From: a virus
DNA length: 64,000 bases
Direction: 5' to 3' (one strand)
Virus record (IMG/VR): IMGVR_UViG_3300027877_000005
Every line of letters begins with the position of its first letter. Within the stretch, counting starts at the first letter, position 1. Under the pieces are notes generated by a model. That model did not search any database. It had not been told where the DNA came from and saw only the letters and a list, made by a program, of their open reading frames with translations. The translations under genes and the position numbers were made by a program. Below are positions 269 to 22,081 of this stretch, piece after piece.

Positions 269-445
269 ATGGAAAAACTTTTACGAATATCCGATATGAA
301 AGAATTTATTACATTGGGAAATAAAATGATGAAAGAATTATTCTCCAATGCAGTAAAAGATTATAAACCACCTAAACCTAAAAAATATACACATTATATA
401 ATATTTGGATGTAATCCAGATGGGAGAAAAGATTATGGAATATGA
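269..445 (+). CDS. Hypothetical protein (58 aa)
   Basis: AGGAG RBS before ATG 269; the track start (TTG 185) is the -35 box. Confidence 0.6.
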   Translation: MEKLLRISDMKEFITLGNKMMKELFSNAVKDYKPPKPKKYTHYIIFGCNPDGRKDYGI

Positions 446-2279: not shown

Positions 2280-2282
2280 ACT

Positions 2283-6267: not shown

Positions 6268-6268
6268 A

Positions 6269-6694
6269 ATGTTTTACTGCCCAAAGTGTGAATGTAAAGT
6301 ATATCCCGAAGTATCTATAAAGAATATTCAATCTGATTATTCTGTAAACTTATTTACTAACTGTGTAAATTTAGCTTTATGTGCTCTAGGAAATTTTCAA
6401 AATTTAGAGGTCACAGGATATAGATGTCCTCATTGTGGTAAAATATTTGAGCAAACTAGTTTATATATGAGAAGTCAAATTAGTAGTAAGATTGATAAAA
6501 TGGAAAAGTTTTTAATAGTTTCTGTAAAAAATAAGAAAGAGGAATATATAGATAATCATTTAGTTTTAGTAATTCCTCCAAGAATTATTCATGAAAGTGA
6601 ATTAGATTATTATAAAACATTCAATCCTTATAATGATGACAAGTATCTTATTATTAATAGACTAAATAAAATTACAGTTACTACTCCAAAATAA
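6269..6694 (+). CDS. Zinc-ribbon protein
   Basis: CPKC near the N-terminus and CPHC pair. Confidence 0.7.
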   Translation: MFYCPKCECKVYPEVSIKNIQSDYSVNLFTNCVNLALCALGNFQNLEVTGYRCPHCGKIFEQTSLYMRSQISSKIDKMEKFLIVSVKNKKEEYIDNHLVLVIPPRIIHESELDYYKTFNPYNDDKYLIINRLNKITVTTPK

Positions 6695-6704
6695 GAGGTG
6701 AAAA

Positions 6705-7700: not shown

Positions 7701-8499
7701 TGATTATTTAAAACATAATAATGAAATTTTATCAAGTTTATCTTCAATTGCTTATGACGGACATGTTGGCAGTAGTTCTGTTGTATTTAGTTTTGATTAT
7801 AAACCTATTATTACAGATGTTTGTTTCGCTAGAATGTACAGTCAAATAAAAGAAGCAAAATATAAAAGAGAATTTTCATCTAATTATATTATGAGAATGC
7901 CTTATCTAAAAGAAGATAAAGATGAAACTTTACATGCAAATTATGTAGATTATCCTACATTCTTTAAGAATTTACAAGAATTAATGGAAGATACTTATAA
8001 GATAACTGTATATGATACTGATTATAGAAATATAAAGTTTGTATCAATGGAAAGTAAAATTGAATTACCTTTAGATTTAAATTATTGTTTAACCTTAGTA
8101 TTATATACAATGATTAGGGGTATAGAAGGAGAGAATAATTATTCTTTGAGAAAACGTTTTAGTAAAACAATTTTACTAAGTGGAGATATCAAAGAATATT
8201 TATATACAACTTCTAAAGAAAATAGGGGTTCACATCATAATGTAAGTGATTCTTTAGATAAAATAGCTAACCATAATAATTTACCAGAAGAATTCAAAGA
8301 GAAAATTTTTGAAAATTATGTTAAAACATTAAAGATAACCTTTGGTAAAGATGGATTAATTCATAATCCTGAATACATAAAGTATTTTGAAGGATTTTTT
8401 GATAAAAAACCTAATGGATATGGTAATGCTATGCAAACTAAATCATTTGATTATATAAATCTAACCACAAATAGAATTATACGGGAGAGTTTACAATGA
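7687..8499 (+). CDS. Hypothetical protein (270 aa)
   Basis: Coupled ORF between the ligase and the glutaminase. Confidence 0.75.
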   Translation: MDNFNDYLKHNNEILSSLSSIAYDGHVGSSSVVFSFDYKPIITDVCFARMYSQIKEAKYKREFSSNYIMRMPYLKEDKDETLHANYVDYPTFFKNLQELMEDTYKITVYDTDYRNIKFVSMESKIELPLDLNYCLTLVLYTMIRGIEGENNYSLRKRFSKTILLSGDIKEYLYTTSKENRGSHHNVSDSLDKIANHNNLPEEFKEKIFENYVKTLKITFGKDGLIHNPEYIKYFEGFFDKKPNGYGNAMQTKSFDYINLTTNRIIRESLQ

Positions 8500-9134
8500 T
8501 TAATATTGGAGTTTCTAAGATGGGAATGAACCCACCTTCATTTTATAATAGATTATTGAACTCAGCATTTAAGAGTATAAATATTAATACAAATGAATGT
8601 GCTGTAGAATATGTAAACTTTGATAGTCCATATGATTATATTCTATTTGATGGTGGAAGTGATGTTTCACCTGAATTTTATGGAGAAGAAAATATACATT
8701 CTTATATTGATAAACTTAGAGATGATTATGAAAAGAGTATATTTGAACATTATAAAGATACTACAACAAAATTTACAGGAATTTGTAGAGGACATCAATT
8801 TCTAAATGTAATGTATGGAGGAACTTTAATACAAAATCTTGGAAGTTGTTTATTATCTCATCCTGCTTATCATTATATTAGAGTAAGTGGAATGATAGAA
8901 AATAGTTTTAAGAATATTTTACCAAGAATGACTGAAGTAAATTCCATGCATCATCAAGCTGTAAATAAATTAGCAAAAAATTTATATGCAATTGCTTTTG
9001 AGCCTCATACTTCTATCATAGAAGTTTATGGTGAAATGGATGATAAAGTAAGAGCAGTACAATTTCATCCAGAATTTGCTAATTCATTTCCTTATACTAA
9101 AGAAATTTTAGCATGGTTGTTTAGGATTTTATAA
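8496..9134 (+). CDS. Peptidase C26 / class I glutamine amidotransferase (PuuD-like gamma-glutamyl hydrolase)
   Basis: DGGSDVSPEFYGE, GICRGHQFLNV (catalytic Cys), VNSMHHQAV, VQFHPE (His-x-Glu). Confidence 0.9.
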   Translation: MINIGVSKMGMNPPSFYNRLLNSAFKSININTNECAVEYVNFDSPYDYILFDGGSDVSPEFYGEENIHSYIDKLRDDYEKSIFEHYKDTTTKFTGICRGHQFLNVMYGGTLIQNLGSCLLSHPAYHYIRVSGMIENSFKNILPRMTEVNSMHHQAVNKLAKNLYAIAFEPHTSIIEVYGEMDDKVRAVQFHPEFANSFPYTKEILAWLFRIL

Positions 9135-9199
9135 TAATAAATCGTGAGGTAAGTTAGACAAATGAATACATATTAAATATTTTCTTATCGGAGGTTAAT

Positions 9200-9499
9200 A
9201 TGAAACATACTAATAAACGTTTGGAGGAAAGATTTAATATAACAATTGATAGGAAAACATTAAAGAAATTAAATGCCAATATACAAGATATAGATAATTC
9301 TATTCCTTGCATGTTTATAAAAAGGAAGAGTAATAGATTATCTGAATGGTTAATCTTAGTAAATAATAGGTGGACAATTTGTTACTATGATAAGAATAAA
9401 AATAGTATTGTCACCTTTATTGATAATAGTATCCTTGAAAAGTTTGAATTAATAGAAAGGTGTATGGAATTATGGAAAGTAAAAACAAGCCATGTTTAG
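9200..9499 (+). CDS. Hypothetical protein
   Basis: GGAGG RBS, 99-aa ORF. Confidence 0.7.
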   Translation: MKHTNKRLEERFNITIDRKTLKKLNANIQDIDNSIPCMFIKRKSNRLSEWLILVNNRWTICYYDKNKNSIVTFIDNSILEKFELIERCMELWKVKTSHV

Positions 9500-9825
9500 T
9501 CTTACAATATAATCCTACTAATGATGAAGTTATAGGAATTGAATTAACTACTACTTATAATTATTGGGAAAAAGAAGCATTTATAGATATGAATAAAAGA
9601 CAATTATTCCCATGTAAAGTAGACGGAATAAAGTATAAAGATTACAGTACATGGTTTAATAATATAAGAATGTGTCCAATTTCTGATGAAATATTAAAGA
9701 AAATAGAAAGTATAAAAAGTTCATTGAATAGTTTATCTCACTTTACTTCTGCACCGGGAAGTTCTTTTGGCAATAGTGTTTATAAAATTAATTTTCCTAA
9801 AGTTTTTTACCCAGGTTATGACTAA
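9460..9825 (+). CDS. Hypothetical protein
   Basis: 121-aa ORF in operon; start uncertain. Confidence 0.65.
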   Translation: MYGIMESKNKPCLVLQYNPTNDEVIGIELTTTYNYWEKEAFIDMNKRQLFPCKVDGIKYKDYSTWFNNIRMCPISDEILKKIESIKSSLNSLSHFTSAPGSSFGNSVYKINFPKVFYPGYD

Positions 9826-9840
9826 ATTTTGGAGGACAAA

Positions 9841-10236
9841 ATGATTGAATTCGAAAAAGCTGGTAAAATTTACCAAATTACATTCTATTTTCCTGATAAA
9901 CATAGTGAATTATATCGGCGGTATACTCATGCCAAATTATCTATCAAAATTATAAATGAAGAAAATCCTAACGATTATGCTTGGGAAACTATTGATGAAA
10001 CATTTGCTAAATGTAATATTTATTGTGATGAATTTAATAAAAATAGGGGTAGGTTTCAGGCTCTAACTAATCTATCTAATAGTGTTTTGTTTAGGGATAT
10101 GTTCAATAAATATGATAGGAAAATGATTTGGGAAAAATACTTTGAAAAGTATGGATATCCCCCAAAGAATAAAGCAATTTCCTATGAAAGATTAGTATAT
10201 CTTCTAACCCATAGAAAACATAGTCGTAAAGATTAG
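9841..10236 (+). CDS. Hypothetical protein
   Basis: GGAGG RBS before ATG 9841. Confidence 0.7.
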   Translation: MIEFEKAGKIYQITFYFPDKHSELYRRYTHAKLSIKIINEENPNDYAWETIDETFAKCNIYCDEFNKNRGRFQALTNLSNSVLFRDMFNKYDRKMIWEKYFEKYGYPPKNKAISYERLVYLLTHRKHSRKD

Positions 10237-10242
10237 TTAGAT

Positions 10243-10279
10243 AAAAAAGACTGCCCATAGTTTATTCTATGGGCAGTCT
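10243..10279 (-). terminator. 13-bp perfect hairpin with U-tract on the minus strand
   Basis: AGACTGCCCATAG-TTTATT-CTATGGGCAGTCT preceded by A6 on +. Confidence 0.55.
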
Positions 10280-10301
10280 ATCCCAAACTTTGGAGGAAAC
10301 A

Positions 10302-10487
10302 ATGTTGCCATTCAGTAAAGAATTAAAAGTTATATCTAAAATATTATTGCCTGATGAAACTTATCATATTAAATTACAAGAAGAATTAGAGAATAAAGAT
10401 AAAGTAAAAAGACACCAACCTAAATATTCTGAAGAAGATTATAAAGAATTGATTGATGATAAAATTTTAGGAATATTGGGAGGATAA
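10302..10487 (+). CDS. Hypothetical protein (61 aa)
   Basis: GGAGG RBS before ATG 10302; the track start 10269 lies inside the hairpin. Confidence 0.6.
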   Translation: MLPFSKELKVISKILLPDETYHIKLQEELENKDKVKRHQPKYSEEDYKELIDDKILGILGG

Positions 10488-10489
10488 TT

Positions 10490-10663
10490 ATGTTTACAAT
10501 AACTATTACATACTTAGTTGATGGTAATCCTGAAACATATACTGTAAAGAATGTATCTGAAATTCATACTAATTATAATAAAACTACATATAAAGTAGGT
10601 GATGATGAGTATGTATGTTATTATGTAATAAAAATTAAATGTAAACTTCAGATGGAAAACTAA
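10490..10663 (+). CDS. Small hypothetical protein (57 aa, not in ORF track)
   Basis: GGAGG RBS; MFTITITYLVDGNPETY...QMEN; fills the operon gap. Confidence 0.6.
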   Translation: MFTITITYLVDGNPETYTVKNVSEIHTNYNKTTYKVGDDEYVCYYVIKIKCKLQMEN

Positions 10664-10664
10664 T

Positions 10665-10748
10665 ATGATAAATGAATGGTTATTAATTATCATTATAATA
10701 ATCTTTACAGCAGGATATTTAGTGGGAAAGGAAAATAAAGATGACTGA
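10665..10748 (+). CDS. 27-aa single-TM peptide
   Basis: MINEWLLIIIIIIFTAGYLVGKENKDD; coupled to both neighbours. Confidence 0.5.
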   Translation: MINEWLLIIIIIIFTAGYLVGKENKDD

Positions 10749-10956
10749 TAATTCTTGGATGAGCCAATATATATTATCATTAAGAAAAGAATCTATAAAA
10801 GAATTAATGGATGAAATGTTAATGTATCATAGAATTTATATACTCAATGGGGAAAAGATGCCATCTAAAGAATTCACTCTATATAAAGAATGTCAAAGTG
10901 AATTGATAAAACGGTATGTAACTATAAAAGATATGGTGAATGGAGAAAACAAATGA
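10741..10956 (+). CDS. Hypothetical protein
   Basis: 71-aa ORF, ATGA overlap with the next gene. Confidence 0.65.
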   Translation: MTDNSWMSQYILSLRKESIKELMDEMLMYHRIYILNGEKMPSKEFTLYKECQSELIKRYVTIKDMVNGENK

Positions 10957-11732
10957 TTACAAAAAGTATAATAAATAAAGTTGGATTAGAAGCTGAGGTA
11001 TTAATTCGTAGTAAAAAGAACGAATTAGTAATTCCATCTGATTATAATTTACCCTGTGATGATTTTATAGTATTAGGTGAAATAAGAGCACCTGCAAAAG
11101 ATAATATTCCAGATACTTTATATGCTTTCATGAAAGAATTTTATATGTTTAATAAATCCCTTGAATACTTTAACTTTCATACTGATATAGAAAAAGGATG
11201 GGCTACAATTAGCCCTGAAGATTATACAAATATTTTACGTAAAATGGGTAGTAAAGAAATTGCTACTTGTAAAAATATATATAAGAATGTTGATATTCTA
11301 AAATTGACAGATGCCAATGTATCAGATGGAAAGATTTTATCCCATAATATTTCTACAGGATTACATATACACTTTTCTTCTGATATAGTTGTTCATAATA
11401 TATATCATGTTCCTGATATGTATCAAGTAAAGAATAATTTATTTGTACATTCTGCCCAAGATAAAAGATTTGATGAAGAAACTAAAATATATTCTTTACT
11501 AACAAATAATGCTATTCGTAGTATTATATCTGCTTTTGATAAAGATATCTTTCCTAAATATAATATTGAAAATGTAACTCTAAAATATCGTAAGCCGGGA
11601 TTTTATGAAGAAAAATCTTGGGGATTTGAATATAGAAGTTTACCTTTTAATCAATTAGTATATGATAATCTAACAGAAATTGTAGAATATGCTTTTAATA
11701 GGTTAGATAAGTTATCCAAAGTTCTGGTGTAA
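10953..11732 (+). CDS. Third glutamine-synthetase-fold carboxylate-amine ligase
   Basis: VGLEAEV (ExE), LGEIRA, TGLHIHFS, YRKPG, WGFEYRSLP. Confidence 0.75.
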   Translation: MITKSIINKVGLEAEVLIRSKKNELVIPSDYNLPCDDFIVLGEIRAPAKDNIPDTLYAFMKEFYMFNKSLEYFNFHTDIEKGWATISPEDYTNILRKMGSKEIATCKNIYKNVDILKLTDANVSDGKILSHNISTGLHIHFSSDIVVHNIYHVPDMYQVKNNLFVHSAQDKRFDEETKIYSLLTNNAIRSIISAFDKDIFPKYNIENVTLKYRKPGFYEEKSWGFEYRSLPFNQLVYDNLTEIVEYAFNRLDKLSKVLV

Positions 11733-11733
11733 A

Positions 11734-11934
11734 ATGAATATTTATAAAGTAACCGTAGAATATTCTAAACAATCTGGTAGAGATATAGTCTTAGCTAAAA
11801 GTGTATATGAAAATGTTAGAATGTGTTTAGTTGCTGAAAATTATATACGCATATTAGAGAAGGGTAAATTAGAGATTAAAAAGATTTCATATGAAAGAAT
11901 TTGGTCAGTAAAGATTGAAAGGGAAATAGGATGA
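11734..11934 (+). CDS. Hypothetical protein
   Basis: 66-aa ORF coupled to its neighbours. Confidence 0.6.
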   Translation: MNIYKVTVEYSKQSGRDIVLAKSVYENVRMCLVAENYIRILEKGKLEIKKISYERIWSVKIEREIG

Positions 11935-12041
11935 TAACAATTCCTTTAGAACTTCTAGTTATGTTTATTGTATTTATTATATTCTGTATAGTAATGATGA
12001 TAGTATGGTTTATATTAGCTTTAATTATAAAAAAGATATGA
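11931..12041 (+). CDS. 36-aa hydrophobic membrane peptide (not in ORF track)
   Basis: MITIPLELLVMFIVFIIFCIVMMIVWFILALIIKKI; ATGA overlaps at both ends. Confidence 0.55.
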   Translation: MITIPLELLVMFIVFIIFCIVMMIVWFILALIIKKI

Positions 12042-12202
12042 AACCATTACCTTCTAAATTAGCTTTATGGATAAATGCTTGGCTAGAATTAGTAGATGCT
12101 ATATTATGTATATTATCCTTTACATTAATAAGAACATCATTTAGTTATAGATTTATAGTATGGGATTGTATACAGGTAGCAAAGAGTAAACAAAATAGGT
12201 AA
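12038..12202 (+). CDS. Small hypothetical protein
   Basis: ATGA overlap with the upstream peptide gives start 12038 (MKPLPSKL). Confidence 0.55.
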   Translation: MKPLPSKLALWINAWLELVDAILCILSFTLIRTSFSYRFIVWDCIQVAKSKQNR

Positions 12203-12576
12203 TATTTGTATACTACAAACTCATATCTAATTTCATAATTTCTAAAATTTGTTATCGGTCAGTTTGTAAAACTTTGCTGTTACTAAAACCCCCCAAATAA
12301 ACTTTAGAAAATTCCTAAAATATGCTATAAAGGAGAATTTATATGAAATAAAATGAATAAATAAAGATAAACAATAATTATTTATCAAATTTATAAAGCA
12401 ACAAAATATACCCATAAATATAGAATGATATACCATGTATGATATATACGCACATACATGGAAGTAAAGTTTATTTACCAGTTTGTAAACTTTTACTGTT
12501 ACTATTATTGAATATATAAAGTTTATGGTTCAGATAAAGTTTAGTCAGGTATAAAGTTTATTGATAAACAAAGTTT

Positions 12577-12608
12577 AGCCAGCCGCTTGGTTCAGGGCTG
12601 GCTTTTTT
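12577..12608 (+). terminator. Intrinsic terminator
   Basis: AGCCAGCC/GGCTGGCT stem then T6. Confidence 0.75.
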
Positions 12609-12880
12609 GTTACCTGTACTCACTGCTGGGTACCTGTACCCCTGGGTCACACAGGCACAAATTCTGTAGGTACCTGTACTGTTTGTATACATGGCTAGGT
12701 ACCTGTACTCAATCTTTAAGGTACAGCCCGGCTCCCGGGTTCTAGAACCAGCCCTGAGTCAAGTCATTCGTACTGGTACAGATTTCGTGCTATACTTTTA
12801 CATAGGCAGAAAAACGCCTATCGCCTGGTTCAATCCAACCATATCGAAAATGAACCAGGGTACATATACAGGAGGTGTAT

Positions 12881-13258
12881 ATGAAAAAGAATGATAGTGT
12901 GTCCGTACCAAAGGTAGACGCTGTACAGAAAGCGGTATTCAGCACCGTATTCGCTATACTGTACAACCCTGCCAAGCCACGTGACCCAGCAATCAAATCT
13001 GATTCACCATCCAGAGATGATGTACCATGGGTTGTTATTATACCAGACCTGTCTGTTGTAGCTACTGTATTAGACAAGGATGGCGACCCAGTATGTGGTC
13101 ACGTGAACCCGCAGTACGCATCAGCATATGCTGGTCGTCTGTATAATCGCCTGGTTCAAAACCCTGAATTGCTTGATTCATATAGGAAGAACCCAGACGT
13201 GTATCCAATCAATCGTGGGTACATGGGTAAAATGATTCCTATTCAATTTGAGGTCTAG
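12881..13258 (+). CDS. Hypothetical protein
   Basis: GGAGG RBS before ATG 12881; extended -10 TGCTATACT at 12788-12796. Confidence 0.75.
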   Translation: MKKNDSVSVPKVDAVQKAVFSTVFAILYNPAKPRDPAIKSDSPSRDDVPWVVIIPDLSVVATVLDKDGDPVCGHVNPQYASAYAGRLYNRLVQNPELLDSYRKNPDVYPINRGYMGKMIPIQFEV

Positions 13259-13270
13259 ATGAGGTGAACC

Positions 13271-13399
13271 ATGATTACTAATACTAATAAACTCAAGATG
13301 AATCAGACCCTGCGGCGGGGTCAGCTTGACAATATCAAACGCCGCACCCCAAAAGCCAAAAAGACCCATAAAGGAGGTTCACATGGCAAACACAAGTAA
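13271..13399 (+). CDS. 42-aa basic peptide (not in ORF track)
   Basis: GAGGTG RBS; MITNTNKLKMNQTLRRGQLDNIKRRTPKAKKTHKGGSHGKHK. Confidence 0.55.
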   Translation: MITNTNKLKMNQTLRRGQLDNIKRRTPKAKKTHKGGSHGKHK

Positions 13400-13946
13400 T
13401 CCTACCAAAGCATCACCTACTGTACTGGTTCTGCCATCACCGCACCGCATTTCAGGTGACGTTGATGCTATGCTTGAATCAACCGTTGCAGAACGGTTCA
13501 AGACCATCATTCTGGTAAAGAATGGTGAGAAAGATACTGGTAAGGGACAGTTGGTTCTGTCTCATACTCCCGATTCAAAAGACCCCAATGTACAGGTTAG
13601 CACCTGGAATGCGGGTCTAGGTCATCTGTTACGGTTCGTGCAAGCGGGGGTCAATGCATGGACTAGCGGTGTTGGTCTATCAGGTGATGGGTCAGCGATG
13701 TACGTTGCTAATACTGCTGACACCGTGTTCAAAACCGTACCCCAGCTCAAGGGTTACGACATCGTGCTGGTTCCGAATGGTCGTGCTGGAACAGCCAAAT
13801 ACCGCATCCCGGTGCCTGAATTGGTAAGCCAAATCCTGAACCGTGCCAAGGTTATTAGCACCTGCGTTGAAGCCTTTGGTATCGCTCAGGGTAAGGAACG
13901 TACCAAAAAGGCTACTGATGCACCGCAGATTACAGCTATACTCTAA
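13383..13946 (+). CDS. Hypothetical protein (187 aa)
   Basis: AAGGAGG RBS before ATG 13383 (MANTSNP). Confidence 0.8.
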   Translation: MANTSNPTKASPTVLVLPSPHRISGDVDAMLESTVAERFKTIILVKNGEKDTGKGQLVLSHTPDSKDPNVQVSTWNAGLGHLLRFVQAGVNAWTSGVGLSGDGSAMYVANTADTVFKTVPQLKGYDIVLVPNGRAGTAKYRIPVPELVSQILNRAKVISTCVEAFGIAQGKERTKKATDAPQITAIL

Positions 13947-14030
13947 TCTGCCAGTTTCTGAACCCGGGCAGTTATACAGCTACCCGGGTTCCCATCTCCA
14001 TACCACCATTCGTTACAAAGGAGTTTTACT

Positions 14031-14282
14031 ATGCCACGAACTGCCAAACCTAAGACTGCACCAGCAGTACAGCCACAACAGCCCTTCATTACTGGCGACC
14101 CACACGCAGGTACGCCAGAGAATCAATTGGTTATATATAACTACATGATGGGTCTGACCCCTGAGCAACAGGGTATTGTACGTGGGTTACTTAAATCCAT
14201 GCAAGCGGGCGGGTACAAAAACGGTTGTCACTACCTGAAAGCGTTTTTCAATGACCGACCCACACCGGTTCAGCTAGCGTAA
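14031..14282 (+). CDS. Hypothetical protein (83 aa)
   Basis: AAGGAG RBS. Confidence 0.7.
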   Translation: MPRTAKPKTAPAVQPQQPFITGDPHAGTPENQLVIYNYMMGLTPEQQGIVRGLLKSMQAGGYKNGCHYLKAFFNDRPTPVQLA

Positions 14283-14296
14283 GCACCGGTACATCC

Positions 14297-14366
14297 AACT
14301 GGGTTGGGTTCAGAGGCTACCACACCGCAACGAACCCACGATCCGGGTTCAGAGCCTAACCCAGTT
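14297..14366 (+). ncRNA. Putative structured RNA element (unclassified)
   Basis: 15-bp outer stem with two G-U pairs on + enclosing a GAACCC/GGGTTC hairpin. Confidence 0.35.
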
Positions 14367-14450
14367 ACCCCTGCACCAACGTTACATATATAGGAGACAA
14401 CAACATGACGTGAACCATGGGTGGTATACCTTATAGCCACTAATTGAATT

Positions 14451-14483
14451 GACCCCCGCCTGGGACAGCGGGGGCATTTTTTT
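14451..14483 (+). terminator. Intrinsic terminator
   Basis: CCCCCGC/GCGGGGG stem then T7. Confidence 0.8.
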
Positions 14484-14554
14484 ACTTGTACCCAGGAGAT
14501 GGGTACCTGTACTGGGTTCCGGGCGCCGGGCAGGGGATGGGTACCAGAATGCCT

Positions 14555-14580
14555 GAGTACATGCACAAGTGCATGTACTC
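14555..14580. repeat. Perfect 12-bp inverted repeat GAGTACATGCAC-AA-GTGCATGTACTC
   Basis: Read directly; upstream of promoter 14646. Confidence 0.85.
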
Positions 14581-14645
14581 ACGATTTCTGGTTCATGTAT
14601 AAGTACAAGCACCAGATGATTGTAAAAATTGGTCTAAAAATGCCA

Positions 14646-14674
14646 TTGACGTGGTACGGTATCCCTGGTATAAT
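14646..14674 (+). promoter_or_regulatory. sigma70/SigA promoter
   Basis: TTGACG, 17 bp, TG-G-TATAAT. Confidence 0.8.
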
Positions 14675-14722
14675 TGCTCTGTAAGAGTTAAAATCCAACC
14701 TGAACCAGCAAAGGAGATTGAA

Positions 14723-15442
14723 ATGAAAACCAAGTTACATGCACCAGTTGATGAAGTTGACCCACTAGCAGAACGGAACCAGCTAGTAGATACACTCATC
14801 AATACATCGTTTCAGCTATCCGCTACGGGTACGATATTCACCATTGGTACAGAATCGAATCCCAGTTGGGAGGACATCTTATTCGTTCTGAACCGCCTGT
14901 ACACTACCGGTTACGCTGAAGAGTTCAAACTTCTCCCATTCAATGTTGAACCAGCAATACTTGTATCAGGCTTGTCAAAGGAAGTAGTGGCATGGCTGGT
15001 TCCGCTCATCATTCAGGCGATTGATAGGAAAGTGATGGGTTCAGAGATTGATATCTTAGCCCCCAATAACAAAAACCTGGTACGTTTGGCTGATGTCCTT
15101 GGGTGGTATTGGTATCACACGTTACATGGACCCAAGCCTGTGGTCAATCAGTTAGTGAGCATTGAGCGGCACCATAAGGTGGTTCAGAACGCTTCTCTGA
15201 GTTGCCCATTGTGCTACCACCAGTTCATACCAGCACCCGGTTATAAGACCCAATCTGAAAAGGCATTTGCATTTGCCAAGTGGCTACCGACCCACCTGGT
15301 TCATACCCACATGTTTACTGATACAAGTAAAACAAGCGTTGCCAAGTGTACTTGTGGTACGTGTTCAGGTAAAATCACAAAATACACAGGCGACCCAGTT
15401 AAGAACCGCAAGCTGTTACAGAAGAAAGGTGGTACAAAATGA
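14723..15442 (+). CDS. Hypothetical protein with C-terminal Cys/His zinc-binding motifs
   Basis: AAGGAG RBS before ATG 14723; CPLC...HLVHTH and CTCGTC. Confidence 0.75.
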   Translation: MKTKLHAPVDEVDPLAERNQLVDTLINTSFQLSATGTIFTIGTESNPSWEDILFVLNRLYTTGYAEEFKLLPFNVEPAILVSGLSKEVVAWLVPLIIQAIDRKVMGSEIDILAPNNKNLVRLADVLGWYWYHTLHGPKPVVNQLVSIERHHKVVQNASLSCPLCYHQFIPAPGYKTQSEKAFAFAKWLPTHLVHTHMFTDTSKTSVAKCTCGTCSGKITKYTGDPVKNRKLLQKKGGTK

Positions 15443-15639
15443 GAAAGGTGATTGTGTATACAAAAACCTTGACTGTGTTACTTGTAATCGTAGATAGGTA
15501 CAGGAATGGTAAGTGTGTCAGTCATGCCTATCCAAATCCGTACCCAGCATCAGTTCAACGCTTGATGAAGTTACTTGAGAACCGTGATTCTGAGGTCAGT
15601 GGAGCAAGGGGGGTACTTATACTCACATTCAGTTTCTGA
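15439..15639 (+). CDS. Hypothetical protein (66 aa)
   Basis: ATGA overlap; its stop codon lies inside motif A. Confidence 0.7.
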   Translation: MRKVIVYTKTLTVLLVIVDRYRNGKCVSHAYPNPYPASVQRLMKLLENRDSEVSGARGVLILTFSF

Positions 15640-15656
15640 ACCGTAGCAGTTACATA

Positions 15657-15687
15657 AACCCTGGTGTATGAACCAGGGTTCTTTTTT
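15657..15687 (+). terminator. Intrinsic terminator
   Basis: AACCCTGG/CCAGGGTT stem then C and T6. Confidence 0.75.
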
Positions 15688-15766
15688 GCCTGGGAACCAA
15701 GGCTGGGTACCTGTACTCACCCTCCCTGGGTCAACCTGAAATGAGTTTGTGGGTACCAGAGACCCT

Positions 15767-15790
15767 GAGTACAAGTATATACTTGTACTC
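15767..15790. repeat. Perfect 24-bp palindrome GAGTACAAGTATATACTTGTACTC
   Basis: Read directly; ends 24 bp before the -35 of promoter 15814. Confidence 0.85.
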
Positions 15791-15813
15791 AAGATTCTTG
15801 GGTCGATTGCCTC

Positions 15814-15842
15814 TTGACAACCTGGAACCAGTATGCTAAAAT
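15814..15842 (+). promoter_or_regulatory. sigma70/SigA promoter
   Basis: TTGACA, 17 bp, TG-C-TAAAAT. Confidence 0.8.
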
Positions 15843-15853
15843 AAAGAGAAAAA

Positions 15854-16444
15854 ATGGAGACTAACATGATAATTTGGACATTAATTGGCATATTTATACA
15901 GTGGGTCGGTAAACTCTTCAAGAGGGCAGACGTACTCTTTATAGGGTACTACCTAGCTGGGTCAGGTAAGACACGCTCATTACCAGTATATGTACACGAA
16001 GCTGTATTGAATGAGCTTGGGTGGTTACGTCAATACTGTCATCCTGATACATATATAGTCCACCGGTTTGATAATCTAGTGTTATTCCATACCATAGGAA
16101 AGTGTTGGGTCAAGAAAGACGGCGACCTTATCTATATCAAGGATAGGTACATGTTCTACCCACTTTGTCCCGATAGTGATACTCATTTCAGCGATTGTGG
16201 GTGCAAACCTGAATGGAAAGTATACTCAAGTCTAACCAAGCATATGTATATCACACCACAACGATATACTGATAAATTATTGAATTCAAGATTTAGATAC
16301 TTACACTTCCACCGAACCATGGGTAGATTCATATCTGTTACTGCTGATATATGGGGTATCAAGTACGAAATCAATGATGAGTTTTGGGTCAACAAGGGTA
16401 AGCCATTCGATGTGTACTCTGAGATACCTATATATCATATCTGA
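15854..16444 (+). CDS. Hypothetical protein (196 aa)
   Basis: ORF directly after promoter 15814; no family recognised. Confidence 0.7.
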   Translation: METNMIIWTLIGIFIQWVGKLFKRADVLFIGYYLAGSGKTRSLPVYVHEAVLNELGWLRQYCHPDTYIVHRFDNLVLFHTIGKCWVKKDGDLIYIKDRYMFYPLCPDSDTHFSDCGCKPEWKVYSSLTKHMYITPQRYTDKLLNSRFRYLHFHRTMGRFISVTADIWGIKYEINDEFWVNKGKPFDVYSEIPIYHI

Positions 16445-16473
16445 TACCAGTTTGTATGAGGGTGCAGTTACAT

Positions 16474-16503
16474 AATGTGGGTTGGTGTGAACCGACCCAC
16501 ATT
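16474..16503 (+). other. 13-bp RNA hairpin with GNRA (GUGA) loop, no U-tract
   Basis: AATGTGGGTTGGT-GTGA-ACCGACCCACATT, one U-G pair on +. Confidence 0.6.
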
Positions 16504-16633
16504 ACAGCCCCTGAATACGCTCATTGATACATGTACTCATCCTCTCTGGTGCTAATCATAATATGAGTCAATAGGTACCTGTACCATTAAAATAGAGTAC
16601 AGGAACTCATGCTTGCTGGTACAAAATTGCTTA

Positions 16634-16661
16634 TTGACAAATCTGTCCCAATCACTATAAT
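16634..16661 (+). promoter_or_regulatory. sigma70/SigA promoter
   Basis: TTGACA, 16 bp, TATAAT. Confidence 0.75.
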
Positions 16662-16684
16662 GTATAGTTAAGGAGAATAAAATC

Positions 16685-16954
16685 ATGAATAATAACCCGT
16701 TTTATTGTGTTGTACATCCTACTACATCCTTTATTAATTCCACTGGATTCCAGGCAGTGGATGATGTAGATGCTATCCAGAAAATGCTTGATGATATGAA
16801 AAGATTCAATCACAAGTATGCCATGCTGTACCGCTTGAATGGTACACGTTATCCATTCTTTGTATGTGTAATAAATTGCCATTTAGTTCCTGGTACAGCA
16901 GATGTATTCAATGACAATGTGACAGGAAAGGTGGTGCAGTTCCATCAAATGTAA
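16685..16954 (+). CDS. Hypothetical protein (89 aa)
   Basis: AAGGAG RBS after promoter 16634. Confidence 0.75.
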   Translation: MNNNPFYCVVHPTTSFINSTGFQAVDDVDAIQKMLDDMKRFNHKYAMLYRLNGTRYPFFVCVINCHLVPGTADVFNDNVTGKVVQFHQM

Positions 16955-16985: not shown

Positions 16986-17012
16986 AATGGGGTGGTTCCA
17001 TACCACCCCATT
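16986..17012 (+). other. 11-bp hairpin after motif A, no U-tract
   Basis: AATGGGGTGGT-TCCAT-ACCACCCCATT. Confidence 0.55.
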
Positions 17013-17332
17013 ACTATCCCCAAGATGAGAGGTAATAGGTACCTGTACCTGTTTGCCAGTTTGTAATGCGTTGCTGTTATGAGAGGCTCTGGTACGTTAG
17101 AATGAGAAAATATGGGTACCTGTACCTGTGAGTTTGTAATCCGAACCTGTTATGGTACTGCTGTATACATGTATGAGTTTGCACATAGGTACTTGTACCA
17201 AAAATCATGAGTACATGTACTCAGGGTATCTGGTTCCACCAGTTTGTAATCCGTTCCTGTTATGGGGCTTGGGTACATGTACCAGCAAAGCTGAGTACAT
17301 GTACTCTATTTACTTGGTATAGATGCTTAAAT

Positions 17333-17376
17333 AAAAAAAACCGGACAATCCCGGTGAATTAGACCAGGATTGTCCG
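17333..17376 (-). terminator. Intrinsic terminator (distal of a tandem pair)
   Basis: 14-bp stem with a G-U pair only on the minus strand; A8 on + at 17333-17340. Confidence 0.75.
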
Positions 17377-17387
17377 ATTTGTTAAAT

Positions 17388-17421
17388 AAAAAAAATCCCC
17401 TACCATTTCTGGTAGGGGATT
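17388..17421 (-). terminator. Intrinsic terminator with GAAA tetraloop
   Basis: AATCCCCTACCA/TGGTAGGGGATT 12-bp stem; A-run on +. Confidence 0.8.
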
Positions 17422-17605
17422 ATTCTGATTGATATATGAAAGTGAATGGTAGAATGGAATATACACGCTCATTCCTGACCATTTCACTCTCAATTGTCGA
17501 ATATAATCTTGGTGAAATTACGATATGCCAAGATTTTACAACGATGGTAATAGAATGGCTACATCTAAAATGTTTACCATCCCTAAAATCAAAGATGATT
17601 TTCAT
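17420..17605 (-). CDS. Hypothetical protein (61 aa)
   Basis: AAGGGAGT RBS before ATG 17605 (MKIIFDFRDGK). Confidence 0.6.
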   Translation of the reverse strand: MKIIFDFRDGKHFRCSHSITIVVKSWHIVISPRLYSTIESEMVRNERVYSILPFTFIYQSE

Positions 17606-17623
17606 TTTCACTCCCTTTAAAAT

Positions 17624-17730
17624 CCCTATCACTCACATGAGCGGATTAACCTGATTCAGATTAAACTACATGGTAGTATGCATCCTACCAATTAACCGTT
17701 TTAGTGAATCCGCTCATGTGAATGATAGGG
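17624..17730 (-). ncRNA. 24-bp RNA stem enclosing a 59-nt branched loop
   Basis: Arms 17624-17647 and 17707-17730; the single mismatch is a U-G pair only on the minus strand. Confidence 0.5.
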
Positions 17731-17736
17731 CATGGT

Positions 17737-17927
17737 AGGGGAGTGATTACTCACTCCCCTTTGACAAAGATCCGGATCGCCCTAAGCGTTATCCCATGCA
17801 ATCTTTACAATCTTGATGAAATTGTAAACAAAGATTGCAATCAGGATAATTTTGCATGCAAGTAAAATATCCATTTTACACTCCCTTTGGGATGTATCCT
17901 AGGGGAGTGATTACTCACTCCCCTAGG
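17737..17927 (-). repeat. Two identical hairpins AGGGGAGTGA-(GUAA)-TCACTCCCCT
   Basis: 17737-17760 and 17898-17927, each just downstream of a minus-strand stop; the loop is GNRA on minus. Confidence 0.85.
17782..17874 (-). CDS. 30-aa membrane peptide (not in ORF track)
   Basis: AAGGGAGT RBS; MDILLACKIILIAIFVYNFIKIVKIAWDNA. Confidence 0.6.
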   Translation of the reverse strand: MDILLACKIILIAIFVYNFIKIVKIAWDNA

Positions 17928-17939
17928 TTTACCTAAGAG

Positions 17940-18545
17940 CTAATCAATCCGCTCAATCTTAGCACGATTAGCAAAATTGATTTTGCCCTCAGGAGCATGC
18001 CCTTCACGCTTTGGAAGGGCGGTAATCCTTTGAGCTCTTATCGCATATACATGGGATTGAGCTTTAATCTCACTAAAACTCAATTCCACGTCATGGGGTG
18101 TATCCTTACCACCCGTAGAAAATGCGTGTATGGTTAAGCTCATATCGGTAAGATTTAATTCCTTGATTACTTTCTCAAGGATTAATCCCCTACCGCTATT
18201 TACTATCGCAAGCGGTTTACCTAAGAACATACCGCAAGCGACATACCCTACCATGCACAAGAGCTCTTGCATCGGATTTTCAAATTTACCCGTACGCATT
18301 AATCCTAGGTAATTTGGGCAATCACGATGCCCGCCCACTGGCGTAAAATTTGCGCCCACTTTCACCCCTATGGATTTACCATCCTTTGGGGTTACTTTAA
18401 GCGTGAACGCATAGCCTACTGGACTATTCCCGATAATTTGGGTAATCCAGTTACTAATATTTACGCCCTTTTCATCCTTAAAGCTTTCTAAGAATGAAAT
18501 AATTTGGGCGATAGCAACAAAACAAGCTAAAAATATGCTATCCAT
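17940..18545 (-). CDS. Hypothetical protein (201 aa) with hydrophobic N-terminus
   Basis: AAGGGAGT RBS, intact ORF. Confidence 0.75.
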   Translation of the reverse strand: MDSIFLACFVAIAQIISFLESFKDEKGVNISNWITQIIGNSPVGYAFTLKVTPKDGKSIGVKVGANFTPVGGHRDCPNYLGLMRTGKFENPMQELLCMVGYVACGMFLGKPLAIVNSGRGLILEKVIKELNLTDMSLTIHAFSTGGKDTPHDVELSFSEIKAQSHVYAIRAQRITALPKREGHAPEGKINFANRAKIERID

Positions 18546-18768
18546 GAGATTACTCCCTTAAAGCGTTACATATGTCCTGTCAAAGACAGGTTGATAAAAT
18601 TCTCCCTCCACCCGCCCCCGACATGTTCGCCTTGCCCCCACACGTGACACGATAGAATTGGGTTATATAGTGGTGTTTCGAGTATATATCAGGCTATTGC
18701 CGCTTGCTACCCTGAATTTTTAATGTTCTGTCTAACTGTCTTAATAATAGCATTAACTTGTGAAGATT

Positions 18769-18866
18769 GTATTAGAATTTTGTTAACATTTTGCCTTGTA
18801 GTATTAGAAATTTGTTAACAAAACCCCTGTTTTGTTCTAATTATTCTAGTCGTGTTAATTAGAACA
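18769..18866. repeat. 20-bp direct repeat pair plus 11-bp inverted repeat in a non-coding gap
   Basis: GTATTAGAAWTTTGTTAACA at 18769 and 18801; TGTTCTAATTA/TAATTAGAACA at 18833/18856. Confidence 0.75.
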
Positions 18867-18922
18867 CTTTGTCAGACAACTTTTACTTCAGTTTACTTAA
18901 TAGTTTAGGTTACTTAACTATT

Positions 18923-19054
18923 CTAATTCAGACCAGGATTGCCTGGATTACTACTGTGTGCTGGCTGATACTGTGTGGCACACAGTATCCATACCCCCCT
19001 ATTTGGATAAAAATTGTCCGGTTTGCGCTCATTACCCGTGTACCAGTACCCCAC
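18923..19054 (-). CDS. Possible 43-aa peptide
   Basis: GGGGG RBS then GTG; MGYWYTGNERKPDNFYPN... Confidence 0.3.
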   Translation of the reverse strand: MGYWYTGNERKPDNFYPNRGVWILCATQYQPAHSSNPGNPGLN

Positions 19055-19057
19055 AGA

Positions 19058-19277
19058 TTTTATCCCCCTTTTTGAAAATCTCTAATCGGTATACTTCACA
19101 TCTAAAGGTACTTGTTCAAGTTCTTCATCCCAACACTTGGGACACATTTCAAATCCAGTATAATCCCATAGATATCCCCCACCCCATTCTATTTCTTCTT
19201 CAGTACCTGTCCAGCCACATACAGGGCATACATAAATCAGTTTCAAATTTTTTTTATCCCCCCTTTTCAAAATCTCT
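19058..19277. repeat. 26-bp direct repeats flanking the Zn-finger gene
   Basis: 19058-19083 and 19252-19277, two mismatches. Confidence 0.75.
19082..19270 (-). CDS. Small zinc-ribbon protein
   Basis: CPVC and CPKC; the true start is probably the TTG after the GGGGGG RBS. Confidence 0.65.
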   Translation of the reverse strand: MKRGDKKNLKLIYVCPVCGWTGTEEEIEWGGGYLWDYTGFEMCPKCWDEELEQVPLDVKYTD

Positions 19278-20282
19278 TATCGGACTTAACAGTTCAGCTA
19301 TTACATCTACAGTAAAGGCGTTACCTAACATCTTGTATCTTTGAGTGTTACTTACTCCTTCTGTATAGTTATCAGGTACGGTCTGTAGTCTTTCACATTC
19401 AATGGGAGAGATATATCTTATACCCCTTTTATCTACTATCCCAAAGCATCTTTCATTACTATATCCTTTATAATGACTAGCCTCTAACATTTGCATCTTT
19501 ACTTCATCATCAGGGAAGTATAATTTAAACTTATTCTTTCTTTTCTTATCCGATAATAACCAATTGAAAGAATCCTTAGTATAGTAAAAGACATTATCTG
19601 CATCTTCTTCGTATACATCCTTCCAGTAGATATTACCTTTCTTTATCACACTTGGGATATGTCCTCCTCCTGATGCTGTTCTTATCGTAGGAGATTTATC
19701 CGTAAATACTCTTAGTTCCTTTTCTTTAAATCCTCCATATATATTATGAATAATAACTGGTTCTACATCATTCTCTAAGATGTCTCCTATCATTATATTC
19801 CTATCTTCGGGGGATTTTATATTAGGGATGTTAGTCCAATATAGTCTCTCTCTATTCTGAGCAGATACTAAAGCAGAGTTAATCAATATAGGTTCTACCC
19901 CCATATACTGAGTGATTATATCTCTCCACTCTTTCTTCATCTTTACATTTTCTAATAAAAAGTATTTAGGTACATATTCGTGTAATATATCCACAAATTC
20001 AAAGAATAACTTACTTCTTGGGTCATCAAAGTTAAGTCCTTTTCCAGCTACGGAGAATCCCTGACATGGACTTCCTCCTATTAACAAATCAATTCTAGGT
20101 AGTTTCCATTCTTTCCAATTATTTATATCACCTAATTCAACTGTGTCTGGATAATTTTTTAAAGCTATCTTAGTAGCGTATTTATCTATCTCAGATGCGT
20201 AATAGTGGTCGTAGGAAATATTGGCTCTGTCTAGAGCTATCCTAGCACATGAGATACCATCAAATAAACTTAGTACATTCAT
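19254..20282 (-). CDS. DNA (cytosine-5) methyltransferase
   Basis: Motif I LSLFDGIS, IV GGSPCQGFS, VI ENV, VIII QNRERLYW, IX-X ECERLQ...LGNAFTV; start MNVLSLF at 20282. Confidence 0.93.
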   Translation of the reverse strand: MNVLSLFDGISCARIALDRANISYDHYYASEIDKYATKIALKNYPDTVELGDINNWKEWKLPRIDLLIGGSPCQGFSVAGKGLNFDDPRSKLFFEFVDILHEYVPKYFLLENVKMKKEWRDIITQYMGVEPILINSALVSAQNRERLYWTNIPNIKSPEDRNIMIGDILENDVEPVIIHNIYGGFKEKELRVFTDKSPTIRTASGGGHIPSVIKKGNIYWKDVYEEDADNVFYYTKDSFNWLLSDKKRKNKFKLYFPDDEVKMQMLEASHYKGYSNERCFGIVDKRGIRYISPIECERLQTVPDNYTEGVSNTQRYKMLGNAFTVDVIAELLSPIRDFEKGG

Positions 20283-20452
20283 TTTATTTCTCTTAGTAAA
20301 TTCTCTATTACTCTTAGTTCTTCTAGTATTTCTCTTAGAATAACTACCTCTTGACTTACAGGTATAAAGTAGGGAGTAAAGCAATAATGACTTTCTCCAT
20401 TAGTTACAAATTGTCCACAGTAGGGACAAGTCCATCCACCAGTGTTATCCAT
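20279..20452 (-). CDS. 57-aa Cys-motif plus amphipathic-helix protein (not in ORF track)
   Basis: MDNTGGWTCPYCGQF...LREILEELRVIENLLREIK; ATGA overlap with the methylase. Confidence 0.6.
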   Translation of the reverse strand: MDNTGGWTCPYCGQFVTNGESHYCFTPYFIPVSQEVVILREILEELRVIENLLREIK

Positions 20453-21619: not shown

Positions 21620-22081
21620 TTATCCTCCGTTCCTTTCGGAAATCTGTTTTATTTTTTCTTGAAGCAAAGCAATTTCATTTTTTAGAGCTTGAATTTGAGT
21701 TACATTGAATCTGGTTTCTTGTATTCTTTCGTCTAAAAGTTTTTGTAAAGCTTCTATATTTTCTTTGTTTTCTTTTGACACACATAGTAATTTTTGTTCC
21801 AAATCCATTACTTTAGTCTTTAGTACTTCGATATCAGCTTTTAGTTGCATAATTTCATCCTGTAACTCTTTATTTTCTTGGGATAATTCAGTCACTCTTG
21901 CTTTATACTGTTCTATTAGTTCTTTAGAAGCACCCTGTATAATATCTGCTGCGGTTGCTTCTTCTTTATCTGCTTCAGCTTCTGTTTTTCTTTTTTGTTG
22001 TATTAACGACCACACGCCCGTTACTGTTCCAATAAGGGCACCTAAGGCTACTATGAATTGATAAATATCAAAGTTTTCCAT
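21620..22081 (-). CDS. Membrane-anchored coiled-coil protein of the lysis cassette
   Basis: N-terminal TM (QFIVALGALIGTVTGVWSLI) then long heptad repeat; next to the holin. Confidence 0.7.
   Translation of the reverse strand: MENFDIYQFIVALGALIGTVTGVWSLIQQKRKTEAEADKEEATAADIIQGASKELIEQYKARVTELSQENKELQDEIMQLKADIEVLKTKVMDLEQKLLCVSKENKENIEALQKLLDERIQETRFNVTQIQALKNEIALLQEKIKQISERNGG

Follow-up and report, generated by a model that had tools for sequence, protein, structure and literature searches.

An uncultured freshwater phage carries, at the end of its leftward gene array, a self-contained three-gene unit on the minus strand in which strong RNA hairpins lie between the genes. On that strand the order is ORF1, hairpin 1, ORF2, hairpin 2, a 107-nt element, ORF3 and two U-tailed terminators. 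The reading we favour, and hold with moderate confidence, is that this is a small operon whose hairpins act as intercistronic mRNA barrier or attenuator modules and double as recombination junctions, like a promoter-less PeSL. Comparative evidence indicates that an uncultured phage clade builds a small accessory operon from reusable hairpin-Shine-Dalgarno-start junctions that are maintained as RNA structures. PeSL-type organisation would then not be confined to T4-like phages and would include a variant that has no promoter and lies within an operon. The findings on the mini-operon do not overturn current understanding.

Layout of the unit and its proteins

Unless stated otherwise, coordinates refer to the minus strand of the window, by which we mean the whole 64-kb stretch of DNA analysed. 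ORF1 (17940..18545, 201 aa), ORF2 (17782..17874, 30 aa) and ORF3 (17420..17605, 61 aa) are each preceded by the Shine-Dalgarno sequence AAGGGAGT, at 18552..18559, 17880..17887 and 17610..17617, respectively. A first-pass annotation of this DNA had reported the shared ribosome-binding site, and the word indeed occurs exactly three times in the window, always on the minus strand and 6-8 nt 5' of an ATG. The count alone is not significant, with 2.03 occurrences expected and three reached in 33 of 100 shuffles; it is the placement of AAGGGAGT, not its number, that is non-random. The two tandem terminators that had been proposed to close the unit were also recovered: a 12-bp stem followed by a T-run at 17394..17421, and an 18-bp stem with U-G pairs, again followed by a T-run, at 17338..17380. 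The second is kept in relatives through compensating changes. Folding of the whole 621-nt stretch gave a z score of -14.2. A BLASTN search with positions 17000-19000 against 50,697 GenBank phages returned no match, and neither ORF1 nor the exact hairpin was found in IMG/VR.

The predicted model of ORF1 has a pLDDT of 89.8, and this confidently predicted fold matches nothing known. Searches of the PDB with Foldseek (best E 0.03), of BFVD, by VIA-align wide (best Z 5.4) and of the ESM Atlas (TM ≤0.30) gave no convincing match; Pfam and PHROG gave none, an Atlas feature search of ORF1 was blank, and no RNA-binding fold was found in the protein. ORF1 thus founds a small family of proteins of about 200 aa without known relatives. 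ORF2 is a hydrophobic, single-helix membrane peptide, as had been suspected, and a peptide of about 30 aa is kept directly after ORF1 across the family, so that the two form a conserved pair. The annotation had also remarked that ORF1 and ORF2 start alike. The two N-termini (MDSIFLAC and MDILLAC) are present, but the likeness is lost in relatives and looks like chance, and a common origin was rejected. ORF3 occupies a variable slot that holds other genes, or none, in relatives.

We infer the strand, the RNA ends and the relative levels of the unit's transcript from the DNA sequence. Relatives have a conserved TATAAT block about 125 nt 5' of ORF1, and TATACT at 18681..18686 aligns with it as the candidate -10 box of the unit's own promoter. 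Because a consensus scan found no strong sigma-70 site in that region, this assignment is tentative and made with low confidence. An 11-nt likeness to a T7-like promoter 5' of ORF3 occurs in only one relative (L001) and was discarded. Two tiny runs labelled metatranscriptomic, which are probably DNA, carry contigs over ORF1 and ORF2; these contigs do not show strand or ends. Run X6 gave no such contig.

Hairpins as proposed barriers and recombination junctions

Hairpin 1 (17898..17927) starts 12 nt past the ORF1 stop and has a 13-bp stem with a GUAA loop (-26.6 kcal/mol, z -7.6), and hairpin 2 (17737..17760) has a 10-bp stem with the same loop (-19.3 kcal/mol, z -5.9). The same hairpin had been described after the first two stops, and we found two exact copies of a 22-nt sequence, at 17902-17923 and 17738-17759, against 0.00 expected; the identity extends to 25 nt (17900-17924 and 17736-17760). 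No U-run, as an intrinsic terminator would have, stands 3' of either, and the hairpins are therefore not full terminators. A similar U-less hairpin, in which a G-rich arm pairs with a C-rich arm, lies at 42670-42689 between two structural-module genes, and a search for a genome-wide family of related palindromes found none.

Six related lineages found in metagenomes keep both hairpins, and we aligned 11 hairpins from six lineages. In this alignment 84% of the cells pair, double changes occur in 7 of 14 pairs, and the covariation score (0.32, against at most 0.08 in slid controls) was reached by none of 500 shuffles. The covariation counts are inflated, since the two hairpins of any one genome do not vary independently. 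The upper and lower parts of the stem carry the compensating changes, whereas the GGGAG/CUCCC core is the same in each of the 11 hairpins, which fold at -16 to -26.6 kcal/mol. The hairpins start about 11-19 nt past the upstream stop and end about 25-31 nt before the next start. In distant relatives, with ORF1 46% identical, the gene is still followed by a hairpin of 13-14 bp and a membrane peptide of 31-32 aa, but the stem sequences are unrelated; their loops are UCAC or UUUAUC, and both the GGGAG core and the GNRA loop are absent. These comparisons indicate that hairpins 1 and 2 are selected structures, covarying over six lineages.

The annotation had held that the wobble pairs and tetraloops make sense on the minus strand only. 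This is true of the U-G pairs of the long stem of the 107-nt element and of terminator 2, which become C-A mismatches on the other strand, and of the tetraloops (GUAA, GCAA and GAAA), which are GNRA on the coding strand only. The GNRA rule itself is not strict, however; it covers 7 of the 11 loops, the remaining four being A-rich hexaloops, (A/G)UAAAA.

The plan of the operon would be ORF1, a hairpin, the membrane peptide of about 30 aa, an optional hairpin 2 with an exchangeable third gene, and two intrinsic terminators. In the sense RNA the hairpins would fold just outside the reach of the terminating ribosome, where they most probably stop decay that proceeds 3'-to-5' or allow only partial read-through, and they would leave the next ribosome-binding site free. 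The order of expression set in this way would be ORF1 > peptide > third gene. The earlier idea of separately stabilised segments fits the conserved hairpin positions. Stabiliser hairpins are known from bacterial operons, such as the REP sequences in malEFG and the hairpins of the puf operon. These, like the phage hairpins, are stable, lack a U-run and lie just past a stop codon, where they could block 3' exonucleases and set unequal expression. The phage hairpins differ from them in belonging to an unrelated sequence family, in a 5' arm that copies the local Shine-Dalgarno word and in two copies that are kept identical within a genome.

The two copies are identical or nearly so in the window (25/25) and in L001 (25/25), L004 (24/25) and L031 (22/23), even though their sequences differ between genomes; the copies of L003 are a mosaic. 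Behind the conserved junction formed by hairpin 2, its tail, the Shine-Dalgarno sequence and the start, we found three unrelated third genes or none, and one of the three was also seen in a truncated form. L006 has neither a third gene nor hairpin 2, and its peptide gene runs directly into the terminators. The copies thus homogenise and the downstream gene is exchanged, and for this reason the junctions act like recombination linkers. At the DNA level the 25-nt module and the conserved tail, Shine-Dalgarno sequence and start would make up a short homology patch, at which the copies may be homogenised and the downstream gene swapped by a PeSL-like mechanism. L034, a noisy assembly of the same phage, shows hairpin 2 with its loop inverted to the complement.

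PeSL (promoter-early stem-loop) elements, in whose stem-loops G-runs precede C-runs, serve as terminators or attenuators and as points of recombination (Arbiol et al. 2010, PMC2839356; Comeau et al. 2014, PMC4122927). The likeness to those of T4-type phages is in a repeated intergenic G-run/C-run stem-loop followed by a Shine-Dalgarno sequence and a start, in copies that flank small genes of unknown function inserted, deleted or replaced among close relatives, and in a stem-loop that is thought to attenuate transcription (PMC2839356; PMC4122927). In the present unit, too, the copies flank genes that have been gained, lost or replaced. Unlike PeSLs, the module here has no sigma-70-like early promoter; a scan within the hairpin-to-Shine-Dalgarno module found no minus-strand promoter-like site. 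The 12-26 nt between the hairpin and the Shine-Dalgarno sequence or ATG leave no room for a promoter, and the analogy is therefore only partial. Further differences are that the modules lie inside one operon rather than between independent cassettes, that there are only two copies per genome and that the phage is unrelated to T4.

A hydrophobic peptide gene of about 30 aa within a highly structured RNA also recalls type I toxin-antitoxin systems such as hok/sok and tisB. They differ in that neither an antisense RNA gene nor a convincing antisense promoter was found here, and in that the candidate peptide is predicted always to be co-transcribed after the gene of a 200-aa protein. On the plus strand, a promoter-like site at 17822-17850 agrees with the consensus in 9 of 12 positions, and the scan that found it gave 12 sites against 8.1 expected, which is chance level.

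A possible sequence-specific reader of the hairpins

Further points weigh against the barrier model. A palindrome that forms a hairpin or cruciform as DNA should covary just as much, and the invariant GGGAG/CUCCC core amid a varying stem suggests that something reads its sequence, whereas a plain barrier to decay could do without such a reader. The hairpins may be operators for an RNA-binding protein that reads the GNRA-type loop and the core. Such a protein could repress translation or act in antitermination of the lambda N/boxB type, and ORF1 is a candidate as well. We consider this unlikely, although several observations are consistent with it: the core is fixed in every hairpin, with covariation above and below it in the stem, most loops are GNRA, the copies are alike within and unlike between genomes, as expected with a co-evolving factor, and ORF1, to which no function is assigned, is always adjacent. 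Against it, the distant family members keep the position of the hairpin without the core or the GNRA loop, and the searches with ORF1 revealed no RNA-binding fold. The core is, moreover, the local Shine-Dalgarno word, and its invariance may therefore reflect origin or base composition.

In lambda nut sites (boxA and boxB), too, a hairpin with a GNRA-type loop precedes terminators, in the RNA of an early operon. The stems here have 10-13 bp, whereas that of boxB has 5 bp; a conserved boxA is missing, the analysis identified no N-like protein, and hexaloops are present. A boxA-like GCTCTTA stands 5' of hairpin 1 in the window and is absent from all relatives.

Two other roles for the hairpin sequence were considered and dropped. 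The 3' arm could form 7-9 bp as an anti-Shine-Dalgarno switch in the close clade; this was abandoned because distant relatives lack the complementarity and the main hairpin is far more stable. Cleavage of the T4 RegB type at GGAG in the hairpins was set aside on the ground that RegB needs an unpaired GGA, which secondary structure protects (PMC3014915).

The long-stem element, RNase III and RNA against DNA

The stem that closes the 107-nt element (17624..17730) has 24 bp, one of them a U-G pair, and ends 6 nt 5' of the Shine-Dalgarno sequence of ORF3. Folding confirmed this stem, which the first-pass annotation had placed before the third ribosome-binding site, and gave -53.7 kcal/mol (z -9.8) for the minus strand against -46.3 kcal/mol for the plus strand. 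The long stem is absent from five related lineages (L007, L031, L001, L004 and L003), in one of which ORF1 is 91% identical, and the extra segment relative to them is an insertion of about 109 nt between hairpin 2 and ORF3. The expectation that homologues would keep the stems through compensation was thus borne out for the hairpins, over six lineages, but not for the long stem.

Within the element lies a conserved 48-nt core (17654..17701) with nested helices of 6 and 8 bp and a UGCA loop. This core is also present 3' of the ORF1 gene in a relative with 49% ORF1 identity, in which none of the 20 unpaired positions differs and double compensation is seen in 6 of 14 pairs. We regard it as a candidate new RNA motif with clear compensatory support, which comes from two lineages only. 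A model search had been suggested for the 107-nt structure; a search of 17 sources with the covariance model R1 turned up no additional copy. Rfam gave no match over the whole window at gathering thresholds; in E-value mode over 17300-19100 none reached the gathering score, and the best sub-threshold matches lay over the terminators. When IMG/VR and the GTDB genomes were scanned for motifs from the arm of the long stem or from the core, the matches listed were chance ones and lacked the helices. The best reading of these comparisons is that the 107-nt element is a separate, accessory and previously undescribed structured RNA, inserted at this place in this lineage only. A MITE-like mobile element was rejected, since the insertion is a single copy in the window, the only relative shares its interior and not the terminal stems, and no direct duplication is visible at the junction.

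The annotation had proposed a polycistronic early RNA that host RNase III cleaves at the 24-bp stem, and possibly at the hairpins too, so that messages of separate stability or small RNAs result. Bacterial RNase III needs no more than about two helical turns of double-stranded RNA. In phage T7, stems between the cistrons are the sites at which early RNA is processed, and the leftover hairpin then protects the upstream message. The 24-bp stem is a double-stranded, intercistronic stem of this kind, perfect save for one U-G pair; it exceeds the 20 bp required of a T7-type site, and its size and the T7 precedent both speak for cleavage. In two distant relatives, L048 (28 bp, 93%) and L033 (13 bp, 100%), inverted repeats also bracket the whole ORF1 gene, in the arrangement of the stems at which RNase III processes rRNA. 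The 24-bp helix would be a good substrate of the host enzyme, and cleavage might free an RNA of about 60-100 nt and an ORF3 message with a short leader. T7 sites, however, are conserved parts of the operon and contain an internal loop, whereas the only long-enough stem here is a perfect duplex that has no conserved place in related phages and serves to close an inserted element. Because related lineages lack it, RNase III processing cannot be the conserved logic of the unit. In L033 the homologous element closes with a stem of unrelated sequence, 18 bp long and A/U-rich, that lies between an A-run and a T-run, and on that account it looks like a terminator. Hairpins 1 and 2, at 13 and 10 bp, are shorter than two helical turns. 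As an account of the unit we judge RNase III processing doubtful, about as improbable as a protein operator.

Somewhat less probable still, and offered as speculation, is that the element founds an undescribed family of small structured phage RNAs, mobile within the 3' part of the ORF1 operon. Such an RNA would be freed from the transcript of the operon, which in this phage would take a nuclease specific for double strands that cuts the 24-bp stem. It would then act in trans, for example as a regulator or decoy, possibly as a loop-loop dimer. The core loop carries the self-complementary word AUGCAU, and the single-stranded stretches are invariant while the closing helix varies in sequence.

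We think it least likely that the palindromes act in DNA only, as a cruciform or hairpin site for recombination, replication or a nuclease with RNA folding incidental: the concerted evolution of the copies, the swapped neighbouring gene, the flipped loop of L034, as recombination between two arms would give, and the mapping of PeSL crossovers within or beside the stem-loop (PMC2839356) are in its favour, but the coding-strand GNRA tetraloops, the strand-specific U-G pairs and the fixed distance of the hairpins to stop codons and ribosome-binding sites argue for constraint at the RNA level.

Anatomy and genome setting of the mini-operon

We read the minus strand of 17100-18800 and found the anatomy described in the first-pass annotation, namely a shared SD, a repeated GUAA hairpin, a 24-bp stem with one U-G pair and two terminators. 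ORF1 (18545-17940, minus strand, 201 aa in the ORF listing) is preceded by the SD word AAGGGAGT. Hairpin 1 (17898-17927), a 13-bp stem with a GUAA loop, begins 12 nt past the ORF1 stop, and is followed by ORF2 (17874-17782), which encodes a 30-aa hydrophobic peptide and has the same SD in front. Next come hairpin 2 (17737-17760), a repeat of hairpin 1 with a 10-bp stem, and a 107-nt long-stem element (17624-17730) whose 24-bp closing stem includes the U-G pair. ORF3 (17605-17420, 61 aa) carries the third occurrence of the SD, and two minus-strand sites with a hairpin followed by a T-run (17394-17421 and 17338-17380) were both called by the terminator scan. All three occurrences of the SD octamer in 64 kb lie within this unit; the count by itself is at chance level, and only the placement is informative. 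The 22-nt core of the hairpins has two exact copies against 0.00 expected. RNA folding energies are -26.6 kcal/mol for hairpin 1, -19.3 for hairpin 2 and -53.7 for the long element (z-scores of -7.6, -5.9 and -9.8), and the fold of a 621-nt stretch has a z-score of -14.2.

The window is phage-like. Its plus-strand arm spans 405-16954. On the minus strand a long arm extends leftward from 63841 across large structural genes, then a C5 DNA methylase (19254-20384) and last the mini-operon, which in this order occupies the 3' end of that arm and faces the rightward one. Upstream of ORF1, about 540 nt (18560-19080, minus) hold no convincing ORF, several blocks are kept across relatives, and a TATAAT-like box lies within these blocks about 125 nt upstream of ORF1. 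The spacer is probably the regulatory region of the mini-operon. With an inferred promoter of its own, and canonical terminators of its own at the end, the unit is moron-like. In some relatives the equivalent spacer contains repeated operator-like words. None of the three ORFs matched Pfam or PHROGs, and Rfam gave nothing in the region at threshold. The PHROG matches of a 153-aa protein at 21620-22081 (minus), to membrane, holin and spanin-like families, are weak (E 1e-4 to 1e-7), and a lysis-related gene may therefore stand some 3.5 kb upstream of the mini-operon.

Conserved hairpins and the exchangeable third gene

Seven ORF1 homologues share 65-91% identity. The family comprises about 20 representative clusters among 1.8 billion proteins, from metagenomes throughout, and no relative came from IMG/VR or GenBank phages. 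We fetched the relatives' contigs and read the DNA 3' of every ORF1. Two of them (L029 and L030) come from the same phage in other samples and are identical over the entire unit. ORF1, hairpin 1 and the membrane peptide are present in L007 (91% ORF1 identity to the window), L031, L001 and L003 (74-76%), and L004 and L006 (65%). Hairpin 2 and then a third gene follow in all of these except L006, in which both are absent and the peptide gene leads directly into terminators. At 46% ORF1 identity, L054 and L055 retain ORF1, then a 13-14-bp hairpin beginning 11-19 nt past the ORF1 stop, and a 31-32-aa membrane peptide with an SD in front. Because their hairpins have unrelated stem sequences, with UCAC or UUUAUC loops and no GGGAG, the first hairpin is conserved in position and strength over a far wider range than in sequence. 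Only the close clade has the GGGAG core and GNRA loops.

Pairs were counted in an alignment of 11 hairpins from six lineages. Standard pairs filled 84% of cells, both sides had changed in 7 of 14 pairs, and the covariation score of 0.32, which dropped to 0.08 or less once partner columns were slid, was reached by 0 of 500 shuffles; a DNA palindrome would give the same signal, and the hairpin pair of each genome does not count as two independent observations. Three compensated versions of the stem top were seen, and covariation extends to the base of hairpin 1. Seven of the 11 loops are GUAA, GCAA or GAAA and four are (A/G)UAAAA; the tetraloops read as GNRA on the coding strand only. The hairpins lack a U-run, and their distances to stop codons and ribosome-binding sites are fixed. 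These data demonstrate that the hairpins are selected, conserved and compensated structures. The mini-operon is a real, conserved, RNA-structured unit. A third hairpin of like design lies elsewhere in the window, between two structural-module genes (42670-42689, minus, -20.7 kcal/mol). Its 5' arm is G-rich and SD-like, its loop A-rich and its 3' arm C-rich; it lacks a U-run, and downstream of it are an A-rich spacer and then an SD.

Hairpin sequences differ between genomes, and the two copies within a genome match at 25/25 positions in the window and L001, 24/25 in L004 and 22/23 in L031. L004 has a stem version of its own in both copies, and the L003 hairpins are a mixture of two versions. 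Such near-identity within genomes marks exchange between the copies or, alternatively, a reader common to both. The junction ahead of the third gene (hairpin 2, short tail, SD, start) is conserved, and the gene itself differs. The window and L007 encode a 61-aa protein there, L001 and L004 one of 84-86 aa that is unrelated to it, and L031 a third kind (71 aa), which in L003 is cut to 20 aa; L006 has none. ORF3 of the window has only one database relative. In L034, a noisy, indel-rich assembly of the same phage, the 4-nt loop of hairpin 2 is in complementary orientation and hairpin 1 is normal, which is either an assembly or sequencing artefact or a real flip through exchange between the arms.

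We propose that in the sense RNA the hairpins would fold just beyond the footprint of the terminating ribosome and would block 3' decay or partly attenuate transcription. Expression would then be graded from ORF1 down to the third gene, with the next SD kept free. As DNA, the repeated module could serve as a homology patch for exchange. In the promoter-early stem-loop (PeSL) cassettes of T4-type phages, exchange at a homology patch has been shown experimentally, and the stem-loops, mostly G-runs followed by C-runs, lower downstream expression (PMC2839356; PMC4122927). The modules here are likewise repeated hairpins, G-rich then C-rich, with a putative exchange role, but PeSLs contain a promoter and these modules do not. 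The main rival explanation is a sequence-specific reader of the hairpins; it draws on the middle of the stem, GGGAG/CUCCC, which is invariant in all 11 aligned hairpins. The local SD word is itself GGGAG, and GGAG-type SDs precede other genes of the phage.

The long-stem element and its core

The first-pass annotation saw in the 24-bp stem an RNase III substrate by its size. The hairpins are compensated across six lineages, but the 24-bp stem is absent from five: in the alignment, the interval from hairpin 2 to the third gene is about 109 nt longer in the window than in L007, L031, L001, L004 and L003. The stem is an insertion in the window's lineage and therefore not a conserved processing site. 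The perfect 24-bp duplex is a plausible RNase III substrate, and a cut there would free the RNA of the core and give ORF3 a shorter leader; this would be a property of this strain's insertion only. The first-pass interpretation is partly supported, with processing, early expression and toxicity as putative parts of it, and the supposed RNase III stem is an accessory insertion with a conserved core inside.

The element is single-copy within the window. A counterpart of the core was found in L033 (49% ORF1 identity), which has no peptide gene and carries a hairpin directly 3' of ORF1; its 18-bp closing stem, with an A-run on one side and a T-run on the other, is unrelated in sequence to that of the window. 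The interiors of the two elements align without gaps across 48 nt, with 34/48 positions identical, including 20/20 unpaired ones. All 14 differences fall inside a pair of nested helices, one of 6 bp and the other of 8 bp, where six pairs are doubly changed yet still pair and one G-C has become G-U, and both sequences fold into the same architecture. Sequence taken by itself gives the match only moderate significance (local score 33 vs 22 ± 2.5 for shuffles, with 1 of 300 reaching it); the case for relatedness is built on position, architecture and compensation. L055 has a 12-bp stem 3' of its peptide gene, whose arm sequence is common to part of the window interior and the L033 closing stem, and the core is not present in it. 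A covariance-model search gave no further member in 17 sources, nor was any found in IMG/VR or GTDB genomes. The element is therefore a candidate new structured element of two lineages. It is unlike a MITE, since the interior is conserved while the terminal repeats vary.

Inverted repeats bracket the whole ORF1 gene in two distant relatives, L048 (2399-2426 / 3105-3132; 28 nt, 93%) and L033 (2953-2965 / 3627-3639; 13 nt, 100% complementarity), with arms about 30-50 nt upstream of the start and about 10 nt past the stop. A 5'-3' closing helix or an rRNA-type processing stem has such a geometry, and the window has no equivalent repeat around ORF1.

ORF1 and the membrane peptide

The ORF2-type peptide, proposed at first reading to be a membrane peptide, has one hydrophobic helix and a short polar tail in all lineages, consistent with that proposal. 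The predicted model of ORF1 is confident (pLDDT 89.8, pTM 0.84), and structure searches with it gave no convincing neighbor. In most relatives the ORF1 N-terminus is an amphipathic helix, not a membrane anchor, and N40, G109, K110 and R119 are invariant in the family alignment. Because ORF1 and the peptide are always paired, their genes suggest a shared function.

In L031 (2527-2544 / 3068-3085; 18 nt, 83%), and at the equivalent place in the window, the ORF1 ribosome-binding region is complementary to the codons of a conserved peptide motif that stands about 80 nt upstream of the ORF1 stop. The complementarity may reflect long-range occlusion of the SD, or may be a by-product of conserved codons.

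A single 329-nt contig (depth 4.4) in one small run labelled metatranscriptomic (X8) joins window position 17774 to 18513, a back-join of 740 nt that leads from the end of ORF2 to the start region of ORF1. Two complementary 7-nt words, at 17776-17782 and 18506-18512, pair as a 7-bp hairpin, and the junction falls in its 3-nt loop. Possible sources of the back-join are a chimera made in the library, a circular or tandem form, and a template switch guided by structure.
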